Below the pieces are notes generated by a model. The model ran no database searches, was not told the DNA's origin, and was given only the letters and a program-made list of their open reading frames with translations. A program made the position numbers and the translations under genes. Below are positions 54,632 through 64,000 of a stretch of 64,000 nt of DNA, piece after piece (the first letter of the stretch is position 1; each line of letters opens with the position of its first letter). The stretch is taken from positions 544,001 through 608,000 of the forward strand of contig CAWDVR010000002.1 of the NCBI GenBank assembly GCA_963805975.1, given 5' to 3'. Source of the DNA: an uncultured Acidobacteriota bacterium (GTDB lineage: Bacteria; Acidobacteriota; Thermoanaerobaculia; Multivoradales; SZUA-115).

Positions 54632-56690
54632 ATGCGTAGAAGTGCCCGCTTCTCTCCGTTCGCCGCCGGCGCCTGCGCGCTTCTGGCAGGGCTCTCTCTG
54701 CCGGCCGGCGCCCAGCTCTGGCCGACCTCGCTGCCGGCGCGCCACACGCTGGAGAGCCTCGATCTCTTCACCGACCTCGTCGTGGCCGCGGCCCCCACCG
54801 GCGAGCTTCTCGCCGCGCACCGCGGCACGGGTTCCGAGAGCCTCGCCTGGCGGTTCTTCGATGCGAACGGCGAGCCGGCGGGCCCGGTCCGCCGGGCGGA
54901 AGGCGATCGTCCCCAGCTTTCGCGTCGCGGTCAACTCGCGGAGCGAGTTCCTCCTCGTCTGGGAGAGGGACGCGGACCTCCTGACCGAGGTCGTCGGCCG
55001 CTGGTGGACCGCCGGGGGATCGCCTCTCGGAGAGGTCTTCCCCATCAACGGCCCCGGGGCTCCCTCGCGCCGGGCCCTGACCGGCGTCGACTGCGCGGCG
55101 GACGACCGCTGTGTGGTGGTCTGGTCCGCGCAGACCGCAGCCGGCAGCTCGCTGAAGGCACGGTTCCTCTCGGCGAGCGGCGTCCCTACCGGTGCCGAGA
55201 AGGTACTGGGGATCGGTCCGGACGGCGCGGTCGGCGGCCAGGTCGCGAGCGCGGCCGACGGCCGCTTCGCCGTCTCCTGGCTCCGTCCGCGCCTCTACTC
55301 GCTGAGCGAGACCCCCCTGACCCTGTACGACCCCTTCCTGCGGACCTTCGACGCCCAGGGCGAGCCACTCGGCGAGGTCGCGCCGCTCGCGCTCCCCTGC
55401 CCTCATCCGGACCCGTACGGCTGTGTGTGGGAGGCCAGCCGCTCGCTCGCCGAGTGGAACGACGAGGGCGAGCTGATCGCGGTGTGGGACAGCTTCGCGT
55501 TCGGCTACGAGAGCCCGGATGCGACCATCTGGGCGCGGCGCCTGGCGGCAGACGGCTCTGCGCTCGGTCCGGCCGCGGCGGTCAACCCACGGTGGTCCGG
55601 CGGTATCCCTGCTCTTGCCTGGAGCCCGGAGCTCCGGAGCTTCGCCGTGCTGTGGCTGTCGGTGGCGGGCGACGAGGGGTTCCTCCGCCGCGTGGCCCTG
55701 CGCCAGCTCGACGCCGGCGGGCAGCCGATCGGGGCCGAGCTCCCGGCCATGGCGAGCCGCGACTTCGTCGCCTTCAGCGGCGCCCTCGCGTTCACCGGCA
55801 CCTCGCTGTGGGCAACGTGGAACGACGGCGCCCCGGTGCTGCCCGTGGGCAGGGCGCTCCGGCTCTCTCGCTTCGAAACCGGCGAGCCGACCTGCGAAGG
55901 CCCGTTCGTCGACGGAGACGTGCCCTGCGTTCCGCTCCTCGGCAACCGCTTCAAGGCCTGGGCCTTGTTCCGCAGGCCCGGCGGCGCTCCCGCCGGGGCG
56001 CCGGCCTTCGTGGCCACGGACCGCGCCGGCTTCGTCTACTTCAACTCGGTGTTCAACCCGGAGCTGGTGCTGAAGATGCTCGACGGCCGGCCGGTGAACC
56101 GGCACTTCTGGTTCTTCTGGGGGGCGATGAGCGACCAGGAGTACTCGATCGCGATCTACGACCGGCAGAGCGGAGCCACCCGCTCGTACTACAACACCGC
56201 GGGAAACCTGGCCTCCGCGGCCGACATCGAGGCCTTCGGTGACGGCGAGCCGCGCGACGGGCTCGAAGCAGGAGAGGCCCTTTCCTTCGTCGAGCTCGAG
56301 GGCAGCGAGCCCGTGGAAACCACCACCGTGCTCGCCCCACGCGGTCTGCCGGCCCCCTGCCAGGTGGCCCAGGACCGGCTCTGCCTGCAGAGTGGCCGCT
56401 TCGAGGTGAAGGTGGACTGGAAGGACTTCGCGGGCGGCAGCGGCCCGGCGCGAGCCGTCCAGCTCACGGACCAGGGCGGCTACTTCACGTTCTTCAACGT
56501 GCAGAACGTCGAGCTCGCGCTCAAGCTCCTCGACGGCACCGCGGCCAACAGCCGGTTCTGGCTCTTCTATGCCTCGCTGTCGAACGTGGAGTTCACGGTC
56601 CGCATCACCGATCACGCGGCGGGAACGACGCGCGAGTACCGCAACCCACCGAGCACTATGCGGAGCATGGTCGACCTCCAGGCGTTTTGA
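54632..56690 (+). pseudogene. Secreted protein with two C-terminal repeat domains; one +1 frameshift near 54911-54914
   Basis: AGGAG RBS, signal peptide MRRSARF..AGA; deleting one C from the CCCC run joins ..GDRP to SFRVAVNS.. Confidence 0.7.
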
Positions 56691-56878: not shown

Positions 56879-59800
56879 ATGAGCAAGAGGCGGTTTCCAG
56901 CGATCCTCCGGCAAACCCTTTCCGTGCCTTGTCTCGCCCTCCTGGCCGCCGCGGCGACGCTGGTCCTGCTGAGCCCTGCCTGGCGCGCGCGGGCGGCGAG
57001 CACCGGCACTGCCGCGCTCTACATGCCGCAGGCGGAGGACTCGGCGACCGGCAACGGTGACTTCATCTCCTCGACCGGCGGCCTCGAGACCTTCTACTCC
57101 TATTTCGTCGAGGTGCCGTCGGGCTTGGCGCGGCTGGTGGTCGAGATCTTCGACGCCGACGTGGGCGTGGGCGGTGCCGCCGAGCAGAACGCACAGCGCG
57201 ACCGGGCCCGGGCCGGCTTCGACAGCACGATCACCTACTCGCTGCGCAACCCCCTGGGCAATCTCCAGGCCCTGGAGATCGGCGACTCGATCACCGATCA
57301 ACCCGGTGGCGCCGACGGTGCCTGGCTGTCGCTGCTGGACACCAACTTCCCCGCCTTCGCCGGCCTCGCCTCGGACACCGATCCCGGCAACGTGACCACG
57401 CTCACCGTCGCACGGCCCGCCGACACGCAGGCCAACGACCTGCTGATCTTCGTCCTCGCCAAGGACGGCAACGGAGCCATCGACACCCCCACCGGTGGGG
57501 GTACCTGGACGCTGATCAACGAAGGAGCCTGCACGGGCGGTGGTGGCCCCTGCCGACTGGGCGTATGGCGGCGCATCGCGGGCGGCTCCGAGCCGGCCAA
57601 CTACACGGTGACCTGGACGGGCGGGGACGAAGCGGTGGGCTACATCCTCCGCTACACGGGCGTCGACACGGTGACCCCGATCGACGCGAGCGGCGTCGCG
57701 ACCGGAGCCTCGATCGCGCCGACCGCGCCGACCGTCAACACCACCGTCGCCAACACCCGGGTGCTGCGCATCTACGTCGCGGACGAGGACGTCTCGGTGC
57801 CGGCCGACGACAACCCCTATCCGGCAGGGTTGCGCGGGCGCATCAACCTCGCGAGCAGTGCCACGGACGCCGACGCCGCCACCAGCGGCGCCGCCGAGAC
57901 CCTGCAGGCCACGGCGGGCGCCTCCGGCGGGACGAGCTTCGAGCTCGAGGAGAGCGAGCAGTGGCGTGCCGTCACCGTCGCCATCCGTCCCAATACCGGC
58001 AACGCCGCCAACGGGCACTGGGAGCTGCGCGTCGAGCCCGGGCCGGGGGACGATCTGCTGGCGACGGGCATCCGCGCCCACGATGGCACTTCCGGTGCCG
58101 GCGGCACCGAGCTCAACGTCTACTACGACTCGCACAACCAGTTCGGAGTGAACCCCAACACCGCCGGCAACATCGACCTCACCAAGGAGTACGACGTCTT
58201 CACCTACGTCACCTCCGGCTGCACCTTCAGCCACAACGACTTCGACTACGACAGCGACCAGGCAAACAACGTCGGCCTGGTGCGCTATACCAGCCGCAGC
58301 GGCAGCTTCAATCAGGTCATCGACAACAACTCCCTGGCCGTGGACAACGTCTGGCAGCGGGACACCATCCCCCGCTGGACCACCGACGGCCGGTCGACCG
58401 ACTACGGCATCTGGCTCACCGACGTGCAGATCCGCACCTACCAGGACGGGGCCTCCGGCAACTACACCAACGTCTACGTGGGCAATTTCAACGTCGGCGC
58501 CAACCCGCCCTCGCAGCCGATGACGAACGCCTTCCGCATCTATCTGCCCACCGACACCAGCCCCACCACGGCGCCGGTCAAGCCCTATCTGGAGCAGCTC
58601 CTCACCTACGTCTCCGGACCCAATCCGCCGCTGGTGAACCAGCAGACCATCGTCTCGGTGACCGTGCGCCTGGTGAACCCCACGGCCCAGTCGATCAACT
58701 TCTCGTCACCCAGCAATCTCGTGATCGCCAACGTGCCCGGCTTCGGCGCCCTCTACGGCGGTAGCGCCACCGTGTCCCAGGGCACCTTCACCCAGCCGGC
58801 GGTGGGCGGGACCGGCAACGTGACCTGGGACCCCGGCACGGTGACCGCAGGCAGCACGGAGCTCTTGAACTACCGCGTCCGCGTGACGCCCACCGTGGCG
58901 GGCCAGCGTGTGGTGGTGACCGGCACTCCGGCGTCGAACGGCACCCGCGCCGCCTTCGTCGACCAGACCGGCAACACCACCCAGGCGCGCGCCACCTTCG
59001 CCCTGGGGCCGATCTGCGAGCTGGCGGCCACGCAGGGCGTGATCACCCACGCCCTCCTCGAGCGCTTCGCCGGCTACGCCGAGGGCGGCCGGCGCGTGCT
59101 GCTGTGGGAGACGAGCTCCGAGATCGGCACGCTCGGCTTCGAGGTCTACCGCCAGGACCCGGCGAGCGGCACCTACCGGCAGCTCGGGCGTCTGCTGCCG
59201 GCGCTCGAGTCGGCGCCCAACGGCGGGCGCTACCGTTTCGTGGACGAGGAGGCCGGGGCCCGCGATCGGTCCACCTACCTGCTGGTGGAGATCGATCATC
59301 AGGGCGGCCGGCGGACCTTCGGGCCGTACACGGTCGACGGCGCGAGCGATGTCCGCCGCGAGGACCTGGCGGCGCTCGAGGACAGCTTCACTGCCGAGCC
59401 CCGCCCGGCCTCACCGCGCCTGGCTGCCCGGCTCGCCCAACACGCCTCCGAGAGACACGCCGCCGAGCTCGAGTCGAGCGCCACCGCAAAGGCCGCCGGC
59501 CTCGCCACGGCGGTCAAGATCGGCGTCGCCACGACCGGCTTCCACTCCGTGACCGCGGCCGAGGTCGCCTCTGCCCTGGGCGTGCCCGAGAGTGCCGTGC
59601 GCCAGTGGATCGCCGAAGGCCGGGTGCGGCTCACTCTCGACAGCCGGCAGGTCGCCTGGGTCGCCGCGCCCGCCTACGCCGGCCTCTCCTTCTACGGCCG
59701 TGCGCCCGAGAGCCTGTTCAGCCGCGAGAACGTCTATCGCCTGGAGAACAAGGACGGCCTGCAGATGGGCGCCGTGGATCTCGCGCCGCGCTCGCTCGGC

Positions 59801-61621
59801 GCGCCGCACGCGACCCCTGCGACCTTCTACGCGCGGCTGCACCTCGAGCAGGACCGCCTCGCCGCCACCGTGCTGCCGCTCGATCCGGCCTCCGACTACT
59901 GGTTCTGGGAGGGCATCCTCGCCGGCCACCCGACGCTCGGCAGCAAGAGCTTCCAGTTGACCGTGCCCGCCGCGCGTGCCACCGCCGCCGCCACCACCCT
60001 CACCGTCCATCTCCAGGGCGGCACCGACTTGGGGCTCGCCGGCGAGCACCAGGCGACGGTGCGGGTCAACGGCGTCGAGGTCGGCTCGACCGCCTGGCAG
60101 GGGATCACCGCGCACGCGGTCTCGTTCTCCTTCCCTTCGAGCCTGGTCGCCGACGGCCCGAACCTGGTCGAGATCACGGGCACGCTGCCGGCCGGGGTCG
60201 AGAGCAGCGCCTTCTACGTCGACTCCTTCGATCTCGAGTACCCGCGCGCCTACCTGGCGGCAGACGATGCTCTGCTCGCCACCGGCGACGGCCGCCCGGC
60301 GGTGATGGTCGACGGGTTCTCCAGCAGCTCCATCCTGGTGCTCGACCTCTCGCAGCCGAATCGTCCGCGGATCGGCAAGGGCGTGAGGGTCTACGGCGGC
60401 GGCGGTGCGTTCAGCGTCAATTTCCGCGCCGTCACGCCCTCCACTCCGTACTTCGCGATCGCGGCCGGCGGAGCGCTGCGGCCGGCGTCGATCTGCGGCG
60501 ACGTGCCGTCGCGCCTCAGCGCCGCGAGCAACCGGGCCGACTACGTGGTGATCGCGCCCGCGGAGCTGCTGGCGGCCGCCGCGGATCTCGCCGAGCACCG
60601 TGCCTCGCAGGGCCATCAGACCCTGGTGGTCGATCTCGCAGACGTCTACGACGAGTTCAGCCACGGCCAGCCCAACCCCGCCGCGGTGCGCGACTTCCTG
60701 GCGTATGCCTACGGCCAGTGGGCGACCCCGCCGCGCTATGTCCTGCTCGCCGGGGACGGCAGCTTCGACTACCGCGACCTCCTGGGCCTGGGCGGCAACC
60801 TGGTGCCGCCGCTCATGGTCTCCACCCCGCACGGCCTGTTCTCCTCCGACAGCCGCTACGGCGACGTGACCGGCAGCGACGGCGTGCCCGAGATCGCGGT
60901 CGGCCGCGTACCGGCCCTGACCGCGGCGGAGCTCTCCGCCTACGCCGCCAAGATCGTGGCCTACGAGGCCGGCGGCTCGCTCTCCTCGCGGGTGGCCCTG
61001 GTGGCGGACAACGCGGACCAGGCGGCGGACTTCGGCGCCCAGAGCCGCGCTCTCGCCTCGACCTTCGAGCAGATTTTCGCCGCCGACGAGCTGTTCCTGG
61101 GACCGCTCACCGTGACGGCGCTCCGCGAACGGTTGTTCGCCGACCTCGAGGCCGGCACCGGCCTGGTGAGCTTCATCGGCCACGGCGGTCCGCTGGGTCT
61201 CGCCGACGAGCAGCTCCTGGCGCCCGCCGACGTTCCCAATCTGGCGAACGGCAGCCGGCTCTTCACTCTCACCGGCCTGACCTGTGCCCTGAATCGCTTC
61301 GAGCTGCCCGGGGTCTCCGGCCTCGGCGAGGAGCTGCTGACCGTGGCCGACGGCGGCGCCGCGGCGGTGTGGGCGCCGTCGGGTCTGTCGCGGCACTCGG
61401 AGGCCCTGCTCCTGGGCGAGGCGTTCTACCGGGCCGTGGCGGCGAGCGACGGGCCGGTGCTCGGCGACGCGGTGCGTGCCGCGTTCGCCGCCTACGCCGC
61501 GCTCGGCACGCCGAGCGAGCTCTCGGCGACCTACAACCTGATGGGAGACCCGGCGGTCCGCTTGCAGCTCGAGCGCCGGAGCGCGCCGTCCGGCCCGCCT
61601 GCCGGCGGCTCCGACGAATGA
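56879..61621 (+). CDS. Large secreted multidomain protein with C-terminal peptidase C25 (gingipain-like) domain
   Basis: Signal peptide; ADYVVI, VYDEFS, YVLLAGD, SDSRYGD, VGRVP, FIGHGG (His), LTC (Cys), YNLMGDP. Confidence 0.88.
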   Translation: MSKRRFPAILRQTLSVPCLALLAAAATLVLLSPAWRARAASTGTAALYMPQAEDSATGNGDFISSTGGLETFYSYFVEVPSGLARLVVEIFDADVGVGGAAEQNAQRDRARAGFDSTITYSLRNPLGNLQALEIGDSITDQPGGADGAWLSLLDTNFPAFAGLASDTDPGNVTTLTVARPADTQANDLLIFVLAKDGNGAIDTPTGGGTWTLINEGACTGGGGPCRLGVWRRIAGGSEPANYTVTWTGGDEAVGYILRYTGVDTVTPIDASGVATGASIAPTAPTVNTTVANTRVLRIYVADEDVSVPADDNPYPAGLRGRINLASSATDADAATSGAAETLQATAGASGGTSFELEESEQWRAVTVAIRPNTGNAANGHWELRVEPGPGDDLLATGIRAHDGTSGAGGTELNVYYDSHNQFGVNPNTAGNIDLTKEYDVFTYVTSGCTFSHNDFDYDSDQANNVGLVRYTSRSGSFNQVIDNNSLAVDNVWQRDTIPRWTTDGRSTDYGIWLTDVQIRTYQDGASGNYTNVYVGNFNVGANPPSQPMTNAFRIYLPTDTSPTTAPVKPYLEQLLTYVSGPNPPLVNQQTIVSVTVRLVNPTAQSINFSSPSNLVIANVPGFGALYGGSATVSQGTFTQPAVGGTGNVTWDPGTVTAGSTELLNYRVRVTPTVAGQRVVVTGTPASNGTRAAFVDQTGNTTQARATFALGPICELAATQGVITHALLERFAGYAEGGRRVLLWETSSEIGTLGFEVYRQDPASGTYRQLGRLLPALESAPNGGRYRFVDEEAGARDRSTYLLVEIDHQGGRRTFGPYTVDGASDVRREDLAALEDSFTAEPRPASPRLAARLAQHASERHAAELESSATAKAAGLATAVKIGVATTGFHSVTAAEVASALGVPESAVRQWIAEGRVRLTLDSRQVAWVAAPAYAGLSFYGRAPESLFSRENVYRLENKDGLQMGAVDLAPRSLGAPHATPATFYARLHLEQDRLAATVLPLDPASDYWFWEGILAGHPTLGSKSFQLTVPAARATAAATTLTVHLQGGTDLGLAGEHQATVRVNGVEVGSTAWQGITAHAVSFSFPSSLVADGPNLVEITGTLPAGVESSAFYVDSFDLEYPRAYLAADDALLATGDGRPAVMVDGFSSSSILVLDLSQPNRPRIGKGVRVYGGGGAFSVNFRAVTPSTPYFAIAAGGALRPASICGDVPSRLSAASNRADYVVIAPAELLAAAADLAEHRASQGHQTLVVDLADVYDEFSHGQPNPAAVRDFLAYAYGQWATPPRYVLLAGDGSFDYRDLLGLGGNLVPPLMVSTPHGLFSSDSRYGDVTGSDGVPEIAVGRVPALTAAELSAYAAKIVAYEAGGSLSSRVALVADNADQAADFGAQSRALASTFEQIFAADELFLGPLTVTALRERLFADLEAGTGLVSFIGHGGPLGLADEQLLAPADVPNLANGSRLFTLTGLTCALNRFELPGVSGLGEELLTVADGGAAAVWAPSGLSRHSEALLLGEAFYRAVAASDGPVLGDAVRAAFAAYAALGTPSELSATYNLMGDPAVRLQLERRSAPSGPPAGGSDE

Positions 61622-61653
61622 GCATCTCACTGCCCCGAGGACCGAGGATCGCC

Positions 61654-61833
61654 ATGGACCAGCCGCGAGCGAAGGAAAGCGCCACCCCCGCGCAACGCCA
61701 AGGGGCGCCGCCGCGCAAGCCCTACCGGCGCCCGGAGATCACCTTCCACGAGCCGCTGGAGCTCTTCGCCGCGGTCTGCAACCCGGGCAAGGGGGACGTG
61801 GTGACCTGCAATCTGGGGCCGATCTCGTCGTAG
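61654..61833 (+). CDS. Putative RiPP precursor peptide (59 aa)
   Basis: GAGG RBS; KPYRRPEI leader motif; core-like VCNPGKGDVVTCNLGPISS; alternative in-frame ATG 61618 overlaps the C25 stop. Confidence 0.75.
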   Translation: MDQPRAKESATPAQRQGAPPRKPYRRPEITFHEPLELFAAVCNPGKGDVVTCNLGPISS

Positions 61834-61859
61834 GGGCCAGCCAGTTCCCCATCCGGATC

Positions 61860-61940
61860 ACGGCCGGTACGAGCCCGGCCGCTACACCCGGAAAATCCTG
61901 TAGCGCCTCTGGACGTAGCGGCCGGACCTGTGCCGGCCGT
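61860..61940. repeat. Inverted pair of GTAG-type REP elements
   Basis: rc GTAGCGGCCGGGCTCGTACCGGCCGT (61860-61885) and GTAGCGGCCGGACCTGTGCCGGCCGT (61915-61940). Confidence 0.7.
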
Positions 61941-61949
61941 CGCCGGCCG

Positions 61950-63014
61950 TCAATCCACGATCGGCAGGGGTGAGCGCACCAGCGCCAACCGCTGGCGGGC
62001 GCCGGCGTAGAGGGCGTCCGGGCGGCCCGTCTCCGCCACCGCGAGGCCGGGGCAGAACGCCATCTTGCGGCCATCCGGGCCGAGGCTCGAGACCAGGCTC
62101 CGCGCCGCCTGGGTGCCGGCGCGCACCTCGGCGAGAGCCCGGGCGCCGGCAGCTCCCAGCCAGAGGTCGCGGACCGAGCTCTGGTGGAGGTTGCCCACCG
62201 GCCGGCGCCACTGCACGCAGGGGTAGACATTGCCGAAAGGGTCGATGGCGAGCGCGGACGAGCCGGCGCCGCAGTGCTTGGTCGGCGATGCGAGGGCGGG
62301 GACCTGATCTCCCTCGCGTGCCGCCGCGAGCTGCGCCGGCCTGGTGACCGAGCGCTCCACCTGGAGGTCGAACAGGCGGCGGATCGCCTCCGGCGACGCG
62401 GTGATGGCGAGCGGCTCGCGGTCGCCGTCGTCCCTGGGGGTGACCTCGGGATCGAACTGGAGCGGCACCCCGAGGCGGTCGGCCAGGGCGAACATCCCCT
62501 CCATCTCGTCTTCGTTCCAGCGTGTCAGCGTGCTGTTGAGCTTGATCCGCAGGCCGAGCGCCAGGCACTCCTCGAGGTTGCCCGAGAGCCTCTCGAAGCT
62601 GCCCGCGACCCGCGTCTGGCGGTCGTGAGTGTCGGCACAGGCACCGTGCAGGCTCACCTCGACCAGAAAGGGATCGATCTCCTCCCGGACACGCCGCGCG
62701 ATCGCGCCGCGCAGAGCGTGGCCGTTCGACTTGATGCGCACCACGAAGCCGAGCTCGCGGGCACGGGCGCCGATGGCGAAGAAGTGCGGGTGCGCGAGCG
62801 GCTCGCCGCCGGTCAGGATCAGGTGCAGGGTCTCGAGGCCGGCGAGGTCGGCCAGGAGCTGCTCGTACTGGGCGAGCGAGAGCGGGCTTCCGGCGAGCTT
62901 CAGGTCGTTGTAGCAGAAGTAGCAGTCGAGGTTGCAGCGGTAGGTGAGCTCCACCAGCACGGAGAAGAGGAGATTCTCGCTCCAGGTGCGGCCCACCAGC
63001 TCACCGTAGCTCAC
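61950..63014 (-). CDS. Radical SAM enzyme with SPASM/Twitch-like C-terminus
   Basis: ELTYRCNLDCYFC, TGGEP, SNG, CGAG..IDPFGNVYPC..VGNL. Confidence 0.92.
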   Translation of the reverse strand: MSYGELVGRTWSENLLFSVLVELTYRCNLDCYFCYNDLKLAGSPLSLAQYEQLLADLAGLETLHLILTGGEPLAHPHFFAIGARARELGFVVRIKSNGHALRGAIARRVREEIDPFLVEVSLHGACADTHDRQTRVAGSFERLSGNLEECLALGLRIKLNSTLTRWNEDEMEGMFALADRLGVPLQFDPEVTPRDDGDREPLAITASPEAIRRLFDLQVERSVTRPAQLAAAREGDQVPALASPTKHCGAGSSALAIDPFGNVYPCVQWRRPVGNLHQSSVRDLWLGAAGARALAEVRAGTQAARSLVSSLGPDGRKMAFCPGLAVAETGRPDALYAGARQRLALVRSPLPIVD

Positions 63015-63307
63015 GGCACGCGCTCTGCGGCAGCCACCGGCACCACCACCCCTACCTCCACCAGCCGCGCGAGGAAGGCGGTGACGTCGCTCTCGAGCTC
63101 GCTCTCCGAGGCCTCGAACTCCGAGGAGAGATGCGACACGAGGCCGCCCACGTTGGTCTCGCCGTCGAGCAGCGCCAGCACGCGGCCTCCCACCTCGTTC
63201 AAGCCCAACACCTCGGCACGGGTCTGGGAGACGACCACCGCGCCGTCACCCACGACGCGAAAACGCACATCTTTCGCTCGAACGAAAACGCTATTGATCG
63301 TGATCAC
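63011..63307 (-). CDS. PqqD-family RiPP recognition element
   Basis: RVVGDGAVVV..LNEVGGRVLALLDG..LSSEF..DVTAFLARL..GVV; GTGA overlaps with both neighbours. Confidence 0.88.
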   Translation of the reverse strand: MITINSVFVRAKDVRFRVVGDGAVVVSQTRAEVLGLNEVGGRVLALLDGETNVGGLVSHLSSEFEASESELESDVTAFLARLVEVGVVVPVAAAERVP

Positions 63308-64000
63308 AGAGAGAGAATACTCCAGAAAGCCGGATCTTTTCGAAAGCCGAGAGCCGCGGCCGGTGTGTGGCGCACAATCGCCTCCAGGTTCGCCGCCAGG
63401 CGGTCCCCGCGAAAGGGATCGCCGTTGACGAACGGCGAGCAGGCGAGGAGTGCGGCCACGGCCGCCGACGGCCCGAGCGGTGCCAGCCGATGCTCGGGCC
63501 CTTGCTCCAGGCGCAGCAGGCGAGCCAGGGGAAAAGCACCGGGCCGGGCCGCGGCGCGACCGAAGTCGCCGGCGAAGGGAAGCTGGTAGACGGCGGCGCC
63601 CTCGTCCTCCGGCAGCACGGCATTCATGTCGTCGGAGAGCACCGCCCGCCCGCTCTCCACGGAGAGCCGCGCCACGGTCGTCTTGCCGGCGTCGGAGGCG
63701 CCGAAGAACACGCTGGCGCGACCGCCGTCCAGGGCCGCGCTGCTGTGGAGCAGCACGCCGCCCAGCTCCAGCAAGCGGTAGGCGGCGAGCACACGGAAGT
63801 AGTTCTCGAAGGCGCCGAGGAAGGCTTCGCCCTCTTCGAGGCAAGTCCAGAGAGCGCCGCAGAGCGCCGGCCGCCATTCGAGAGCGCCCACCAGCGAGAG
63901 GCCGGCGAAGCGCACCAGAGCCGCTTCGTACTCGAGGTCGAGCGCGTAGTGCCAGCCCTGGACGTCCACGGCGCGGAAGTCCTCCGCCGGCAGGAGGAAG
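63304..64000 (-). CDS. HPr-kinase-related P-loop protein (5' end outside window)
   Basis: GGVLLHSS, FFGASDAGKTT, VLSDD, PF.G motifs. Confidence 0.8.
   Translation of the reverse strand, partial: FLLPAEDFRAVDVQGWHYALDLEYEAALVRFAGLSLVGALEWRPALCGALWTCLEEGEAFLGAFENYFRVLAAYRLLELGGVLLHSSAALDGGRASVFFGASDAGKTTVARLSVESGRAVLSDDMNAVLPEDEGAAVYQLPFAGDFGRAAARPGAFPLARLLRLEQGPEHRLAPLGPSAAVAALLACSPFVNGDPFRGDRLAANLEAIVRHTPAAALGFRKDPAFWSILSL

Follow-up and report, generated by a model that had tools for sequence, protein, structure and literature searches.

Several described systems share parts with the cassette reported here. The pathway of linear polyphosphorylated peptides (LPPs) in Bacillota (LppA/K/B/S/D/N, published in 2026) acts on precursors whose leader has the consensus YxxPxVLxHQxIxFETxxS; the leader is cut after position 16 by LppS, a signal peptidase I (SpI)-like enzyme, with the help of a recognition element (RRE) for peptides made by ribosomes and modified post-translationally (RiPPs), and Ser19 is phosphorylated (PMC13381572). 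LPP and paeninodin clusters lie in capsule loci in which a C25 peptidase is no core gene, and, despite this position, the paper knows of no role for LPPs or for paeninodin-like lasso peptides (PMC13381572). The kinases PsmK and PadeK put a phosphate on the C-terminal Ser of their peptides, and PsmN is required for the hexosylation of that phosphate (PMC6993621). SkfB (Twitch) and CteB (SPASM) are thioether-forming, RRE-dependent radical S-adenosylmethionine (SAM) enzymes with an open-site auxiliary cluster (PMC6231123). Finally, PorU, the C25 sortase of type IX secretion, cleaves by the rule X/(GSA)(VLI), with a preference for amine acceptors, and its sortase activity has been tied to Arg722 (PMC4560394). 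Here, we describe a cassette that combines elements of all four in a 64,000-nucleotide stretch of DNA from an uncultured Acidobacteriota bacterium (the window; positions 544001-608000 of contig 2, C2, of the source genome G000; GC 70%), in which a C25 protein gene and a small precursor gene face genes for a radical SAM enzyme, a PqqD protein and an HprK-like kinase.

The precursor is encoded by a 59-aa open reading frame (ORF) on the plus strand (61654-61833), which the ORF track includes only at the end of a 909-aa shadow frame. As a model-made first-pass annotation of the sequence had read, it lies directly behind the C25 gene (56879-61621, plus strand), and an alternative in-frame ATG at 61618 overlaps the stop of that gene (ATGA). 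Third codon positions have a GC content (GC3) of 0.92. Over the 37 codons of the conserved part, four synonymous and four non-synonymous changes separate it from the copy in a genome of the same genus (G001). A first search, using a loose pattern with no requirement for the Ser or the Lys, found the peptide beside homologous enzymes in relatives as well as in Competibacter, Contendobacter and betaproteobacterial records. All 35 distinct peptides end in Ser and carry a Lys flanked by the first two Cys; the first Cys is at position 19 counted from the Tyr of the YxxP motif in 33 of them, and an Ala, the inferred P1 residue, stands three residues before it in 34. At 27 further loci of the phylum, retrieved with a profile built from the first set and thus not a fully independent test, the C-terminal residue is Ser in 28 of 29 peptides and Thr in one. 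The loop between the two Cys counts 9-13 residues and contains the Lys (or Arg). The peptide matches no model in Pfam or NCBIfam, the ESM Atlas holds only 58-59-aa clusters without names for it, and the lasso-leader model matches none of 30 peptides. The 59-aa ORF is a genuine conserved precursor. Its leader of 39 aa (61654-61770, with the YxxP motif at 61723) ends in Ala and is in the register of the LPP leader. Since the LPP leader is cut after position 16, with the same spacing, and Ala occupies position 16 here, we predict the 20-aa core AVCNPGKGDVVTCNLGPISS (61771-61833; unmodified monoisotopic mass 1929.93), which holds two Cys, the Lys and the terminal Ser.

When 61 related genomes were searched, the radical SAM enzyme and the peptide profile each matched 20, and 19 have both; the two genomes with just one of them consist of 500 and 850 contigs. 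C25 proteins of the close clade (E < 1e-190) occur in this same set, G032 excepted, whose gene is divided between two contigs. In the phylum, the peptide profile matches 74 of 301 genomes, or about a quarter (a tally that includes G209). The peptide is also physically close to the C25 gene: the distance to a C25 frame is at most 300 bp for 27 of the 35 and 1.3-3.3 kb for four, and the other four have no C25 gene in the fetched stretch. Thus, the features that the first-pass annotation had named as informative, namely conservation of the YxxP precursor and of both Cys beside homologous radical SAM genes and co-occurrence with C25, were all found. C25-peptide pairs occur in tandem in four loci, and in G044 the peptide and C25 genes share one contig with the radical SAM gene on another. 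In the phylum sample, C25 is present in 66 of the 74 peptide genomes versus 57 of the 227 others, a contrast that is inflated because kin are not independent. Of 20 phylum loci fetched at about 20 kb, 17 encode radical SAM, 16 C25, 16 PqqD, 11 the kinase, six S26 and one PF14907. We also observed a lineage (loci L193, L188, L032 and L033) that has no C25 in the genomes tested but keeps the peptide, in most of these loci together with the kinase, PqqD, radical SAM and S26 genes; the L193 cassette sits inside a polysaccharide locus with PF14907.

The genes that converge on the precursor are all on the minus strand: the radical SAM enzyme (61950-63014; PF04055, partial PF13186), the stand-alone PqqD/RRE (63011-63307; PF05402, 5.4e-15) and the HprK-like kinase of 308 aa (63304-64230, start outside the window; weak ScmC and PEPCK matches). 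All three were confirmed as the coupled operon that had been annotated, and the sequence beyond position 64000 added a further member, an S24/S26 signal-peptidase-like gene adjoining the kinase gene on its upstream side (window-equivalent 64227-64655, G000:C2:608227-608655, minus strand; TIGR02228, 1.7e-8); the four genes are coupled via GTGA overlaps. The structures nearest to the PqqD protein are lasso/PqqD-family RREs (9X90, 6JX3 and 9X8Z), and by analogy with lasso and LPP RREs it would very probably bind the YxxP leader. The PqqD profile matches 53 of the 61 genomes and is too common to discriminate. In the kinase, His162, the Walker A motif and Asp200 are invariant in 14 of 14 aligned rows. 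Phosphorylation had been annotated as a possibility at Thr/Ser-Ser of the core; the modification is plausible at the C-terminus, because the invariant terminal Ser fits PsmK/PadeK specificity, and it is better placed there, where the kinase, judged by PadeK and PsmK, would quite probably act.

The S24/S26 protein has Ser29, His66 and Asp85/Asp91. Set by eye against LppS as given in the supplement of the LPP paper, its Ser29, His66 and Asp91 correspond to S29, H68 and D93. Its profile matches 13 of the 21 system genomes versus one of the 40 others; it is therefore specific to the system but not universal. In view of the LPP pathway, S26 rather than C25 is the likely leader peptidase, and, by analogy with LppS, a cut after Ala39 is probable. 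In five of nine aligned homologues (L025, L030, L031, L038 and L186) we observed Cys instead of Ser as the S26 nucleophile.

The radical SAM enzyme has the CX3CX2C motif and three further Cys (248, 266 and 321) that are present in 27 of 27 aligned sequences, while the four positions of a second cluster are Cys in only four of the 27, all of a divergent subtype. Since the Cys ligands for two auxiliary clusters are not present in the enzyme of the locus, the earlier label of a full SPASM protein was wrong for this subtype. By analogy with SkfB and CteB, we read it as a Twitch-like enzyme lacking the second-cluster cysteines, with one three-Cys auxiliary cluster that has an open site; the correspondence of its Cys to the SkfB/CteB ligands is inferred, and the similarity to SkfB (4.8e-7) is limited to the core domain. 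It is reasonably probable that such an enzyme would form a Cys-thioether ring in the core; alternatively, the Cys may pair in an ordinary disulfide or be cross-linked with the Lys. A second subtype was noticed as well (L040:15280-15462, L090:12608-12772, L100 and L189), in which the radical SAM enzyme is a full-SPASM protein and the peptides are longer, with at least three Cys and a Ser/Thr end, also beside C25; both peptide subtypes are present in G008, G025 and G031.

The C25 protein itself (1580 aa; PF01364, 1.7e-78) begins with what by eye looks like a signal peptide, on which its predicted secretion rests, followed by a variable passenger (residues ~40-720), a conserved T-x-[AVS]-[VLI] junction, an Ig-like domain, PorU-like middle domains and the C25 catalytic domain. 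The passenger varies between genomes, giving proteins of 1,200-4,200 aa, and matches no family in Pfam or NCBIfam and nothing in the ESM Atlas. Thr723 of the junction, conserved in 22 of 22 rows (alignment A3), and the Ig-like domain behind it (together 59045-59341, plus strand) form a candidate cleavage or sorting signal, and the junctions resemble the PorU cleavage rule. The dyad of His1435 (GHG) and Cys1469 (61181-61285, plus strand) is invariant in the 22 rows and aligns with that of PorU and the gingipains. PorU (6ZA2) is the sole solved structure matched by the single C25 sequence, a profile search favours PorU over RgpB (3.4e-45 versus 5e-20), and the top fold match of the C25 model (pLDDT 84) is again PorU over 815 columns, with a template-modelling (TM) score of 0.47 and a root-mean-square deviation of 10-12 Å. 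By sequence and model, the C25 protein thus resembles the PorU sortase. Co-variation of the junction residues with the N-terminus of the core, judged by eye, was not convincing. In G076 and G161 the protein is split: the passenger ends in PTAVV and an Ig domain, the peptidase is a gene of its own, and the peptide, kinase, PqqD, radical SAM and S26 genes come directly behind it. The G161 passenger carries one in-frame stop, and that of G076 appeared by eye to be interrupted by a transposase-like ORF (L190:3635-5120). Three of five genomes searched have the Ig domain at the C-terminus of further proteins (three proteins in G277, one each in G152 and G076). In G000 the same search returned two stand-alone Ig-like domains of ~130 aa beside a second C25. 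This second C25 is short (791 aa; C1:567969-571119, L056) and lies between the two ~130-aa proteins, which consist of the Ig junction only; no peptide gene was seen there.

Compared with the LPP pathway, the cassette shares a YxxP leader of equal spacing, a stand-alone RRE, a kinase of HprK-like type, an SpI-like Ser/His/Asp peptidase and the link to PF14907 and polysaccharide loci. It differs in that position 19 (core position 3), the phosphorylated Ser of LPP, is Cys in 33 of 35 peptides, with the conserved Ser C-terminal instead; in that the radical SAM enzyme and C25 are extra, the main text of the LPP paper having neither (PMC13381572); and in that the NTP transferase and the MsbA-like transporter are absent from the ORFs around the G000 locus, PF14907 being on contig C3. 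With the paeninodin and pseudomycoidin lasso peptides (PadeK, PsmK, PsmN; PMC6993621) it shares a paired-Asp HprK-like kinase on a C-terminal Ser and a PF14907-type protein as candidate glycosylation step, but the macrolactam cyclase and B2 are absent from the G000 locus, which sets it apart from lasso peptides; any ring would come from radical SAM chemistry. Like SkfB and CteB, the radical SAM enzyme would depend on an RRE, has too few Cys to fill its auxiliary cluster and would have a Cys-containing substrate; here, however, the RRE is a separate protein and the similarity is confined to the core domain, and no sactipeptide or ranthipeptide maturase model reaches its cut-off. The likeness to PorU covers the His/Cys dyad, the N-terminal domains, the best sequence and fold matches and the junction; unlike PorU, the C25 protein is fused behind its own passenger, lacks Arg722, ends after the catalytic domain, stays below the NCBIfam cut-offs and is tied to RiPP genes and not to the described anionic lipopolysaccharide (A-LPS) anchor. 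The grouping of kinase-like, PqqD-like and radical SAM genes had been annotated as SynChlorMet-like. All four models stay far below their cut-offs: ScmC, ScmD, ScmE and ScmF score 19/125, 23/100, 47/400 and 65/400 bits, respectively. There is one radical SAM gene here, and no gene of the locus scores high enough for any SynChlorMet model or named model of a RiPP maturase. The cassette thus falls short on a defining feature of each of the LPP, paeninodin-type, thioether-maturase and PorU families, and it is classed as a variant of kinase-RRE RiPP systems that works like LPP/paeninodin tailoring combined with a thioether maturase and PorU. The accessible part of PMC10288494 mentions neither kinase, C25, HPr nor SynChlorMet, and the combination of kinase, PqqD, radical SAM and C25 is not described in the open-access literature (subscription papers and bioRxiv supplements lay outside the search), and the first-pass annotation likewise named no characterised RiPP class with it.

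A sister clade of C25 proteins provides a further comparison. Genomes of the order that lack the peptide system often carry this clade (GHSG...WGCW) beside lasso clusters with a cyclase-like gene, a kinase and sometimes PqqD and B2; there, the leader model passes its cut-off in two of two precursors and B2 in one of one, with the cyclase below its cut-off. In a FastTree of 82 C25 catalytic domains, 28 of the 37 rows of the first group go with the radical SAM system, two with the full-SPASM subtype and seven stand alone, and all seven lone copies sit in system genomes. The second group counts 44 rows, 25 lasso-linked and 19 alone, and one long-branch row falls between the groups; both groups span several host families. 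The split shows linkage, not contact. Lasso clusters with an HprK-like kinase around the second clade were seen at L096, L097, L098, L106, L110, L114-L117, L120, L126, L128, L129, L132 and L137. The typical core there is G-x-S/T-x-G-x-G-[DE]-S; its position 3 is Ser/Thr, which recalls LPP, and a terminal Ser is missing. G000 has a lasso-like cluster of its own (C4:509032-519401, L146), consisting of PqqD, B2, a lasso-leader precursor, cyclase-like and methyltransferase-like genes and a kinase, directly behind a 1734-aa Sdr-like adhesin that has no C25 domain.

Genes for glycan assembly accompany the cassette at some loci. PF14907, O-antigen-ligase-like or sugar-transferase genes occur in 11 of 25 loci, as found with profiles built from these same loci, and an NTase gene lies within the fetched stretch in nine of 25. 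In G000 the PF14907, O-antigen-ligase-like, tetratricopeptide repeat (TPR) and sugar-transferase genes stand together on contig C3 (C3:267620-272057, L054). By eye this block is near a capsule-export-like region, and the same block adjoins the cassette in other genomes. One six-genome family has neither PF14907 nor PqqD over the cut-off and is also without C25 and the peptide.

Based on gene content, conservation and linkage, we tentatively propose that the product is a cross-linked, Ser-phosphorylated ~20-mer used at the cell envelope by the C25 protein, itself predicted to be secreted, most likely for anchoring surface proteins by transpeptidation. The peptide, RRE, kinase and C25 remain constant while the ring enzyme and the leader peptidase are exchanged, and we therefore argue that C25 acts downstream of maturation. 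In between, a PF14907 protein encoded elsewhere might glycosylate the phosphoserine and tie the peptide to surface-glycan assembly, a step suggested by PsmN and the gene neighbourhoods, for and against which the case is nearly balanced. The last step, in which C25 would cleave the T-x-A junction and join the passenger to the glycopeptide or its carrier, is speculative and somewhat doubtful. Because lasso cores are expected to be without a free N-terminus and the Lys can be Arg, the amine donor may be something other than the peptide, which would then mark a glycan or lipid carrier for recognition. A broader version, in which a small rigid peptide, radical-SAM-cyclised in some lineages of the phylum and a lasso in others, with a phosphorylated and glycosylated Ser is the linker or key by which PorU-like C25 domains attach the giant adhesin-like proteins fused to them covalently to the envelope, seems unlikely.

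A number of results weigh against the proposed use of the peptide in anchoring. No C25 match was found in eight of the 74 peptide genomes, four of which belong to one family, nor in a targeted search of G291, G244 and G350. PF14907 matches 54 of the 61 genomes and is not system-specific, and neither it nor an exporter gene is among the ORFs around the G000 locus. The S26 profile finds no match in eight of the 21 system genomes, one of them 100% complete, and Arg replaces the Lys in two of the 29 further phylum peptides. PorU Arg722, 32 residues after the catalytic Cys, aligns to Gly in the C25 protein, whose scores also miss the NCBIfam PorU cut-offs (NF033707, 209/420 bits; NF052324, 116/450 bits). 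Large cargo proteins ending in an Ig domain were looked for in G000 without success. The C25 phylogeny was made with FastTree only and counts as a single evolutionary contrast; no gene of the peptide system lies closer than 6 kb to 26 of its 82 copies. Lastly, the lasso cores do not end in Ser and are predicted to be without a free N-terminus, so that one mechanism with the peptide as amine donor could not hold for both classes.

We weighed several alternatives to anchoring. The cyclised peptide could regulate C25, as an inhibitor or latency plug with its basic residue in a constrained loop and no ligation, which we regard as improbable. The Lys (or, in two of 29, Arg) in the 9-13-residue loop, the one peptide gene for each tandem C25 copy and the correspondence of C25 clade and peptide class all agree with such a role, but it leaves the invariant terminal Ser, the kinase and the glycan genes unexplained, the peptide persists in the C25-less lineage, and the 26 C25 copies without a nearby peptide-system gene are not accounted for. 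It is just as improbable, in our judgement, that peptide and C25 are separate envelope or biofilm parts, co-regulated and co-transferred without contact, with the peptide ending as a capsule phosphoglycopeptide. The C25-less cassette in the polysaccharide locus (L193), the G000 lasso cluster beside an adhesin without a C25 domain and the LPP/paeninodin clusters in capsule loci that have no C25 as core gene are what one would see in that case; however, the peptide gene remains beside C25 even where the enzyme genes lie apart, the two are duplicated jointly, and all seven stand-alone C25 proteins of the radical SAM clade occur in system genomes. A conventional diffusible RiPP, with C25 as its leader or release protease, is slightly less probable again. 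Leader protease had been one of two roles annotated for C25, and tight adjacency, co-duplication, an intact His/Cys dyad and the system genomes without an S26 match are in its favour. It is weakened by the signal-peptide-like start of C25, by the LppS-like S26 gene in the same operon, which is nearly confined to system genomes, by C25 accompanying lasso clusters, some with their own B2 peptidase, and by variable passengers that would be needless for such a role; the transpeptidase alternative, the other annotated role, fits the evidence better. That the small ORF is spurious, as its nesting at the end of the 909-aa shadow frame and the absence of Pfam and NCBIfam matches might suggest, is already refuted: Thermoanaerobaculia-related genomes and Pseudomonadota conserve its motif, the place of its stop and its gene neighbours, and it is present in 74 of 301 phylum genomes.

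These data define a widespread uncharacterised RiPP family, present in the quarter of sampled phylum genomes given above and in Pseudomonadota, and offer exact predictions for the cut site, the phosphorylated residue and a radical SAM enzyme without a second cluster. As PorU-like surface proteins of the same kind accompany two ring chemistries that are unrelated, the peptides may serve the anchoring or processing of surface proteins, not antibiosis. If anchoring by transpeptidation is true, C25 proteins would gain a role outside the type IX secretion system; there would be an anchor like glycosylphosphatidylinositol (GPI) made from a ribosomal peptide, and the kinase/PF14907-modified lasso peptides and LPPs of capsule loci would obtain a function.

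With regard to the surroundings of the cassette, a promoter and terminator scan of the locus gave nothing informative. Of the words, 7% occur in the sole RNA run found, and the one contig there that covers 61440-61786, which comes from a relative, does not demonstrate transcription. An S8 peptidase upstream of the S26 gene was considered as part of the system and rejected, being common only to the same-genus genome; an alpha/beta-hydrolase-S8 peptidase fusion is encoded there (G000:C2:608693-611155, L001:10694-13156). On the other side, the gene upstream of C25 (window 54632-56690) encodes a secreted-looking protein with repeated CL-x-x-GRF domains, and its GC3 signal switches frame near the 5' end, which indicates a frameshift or an assembly error.

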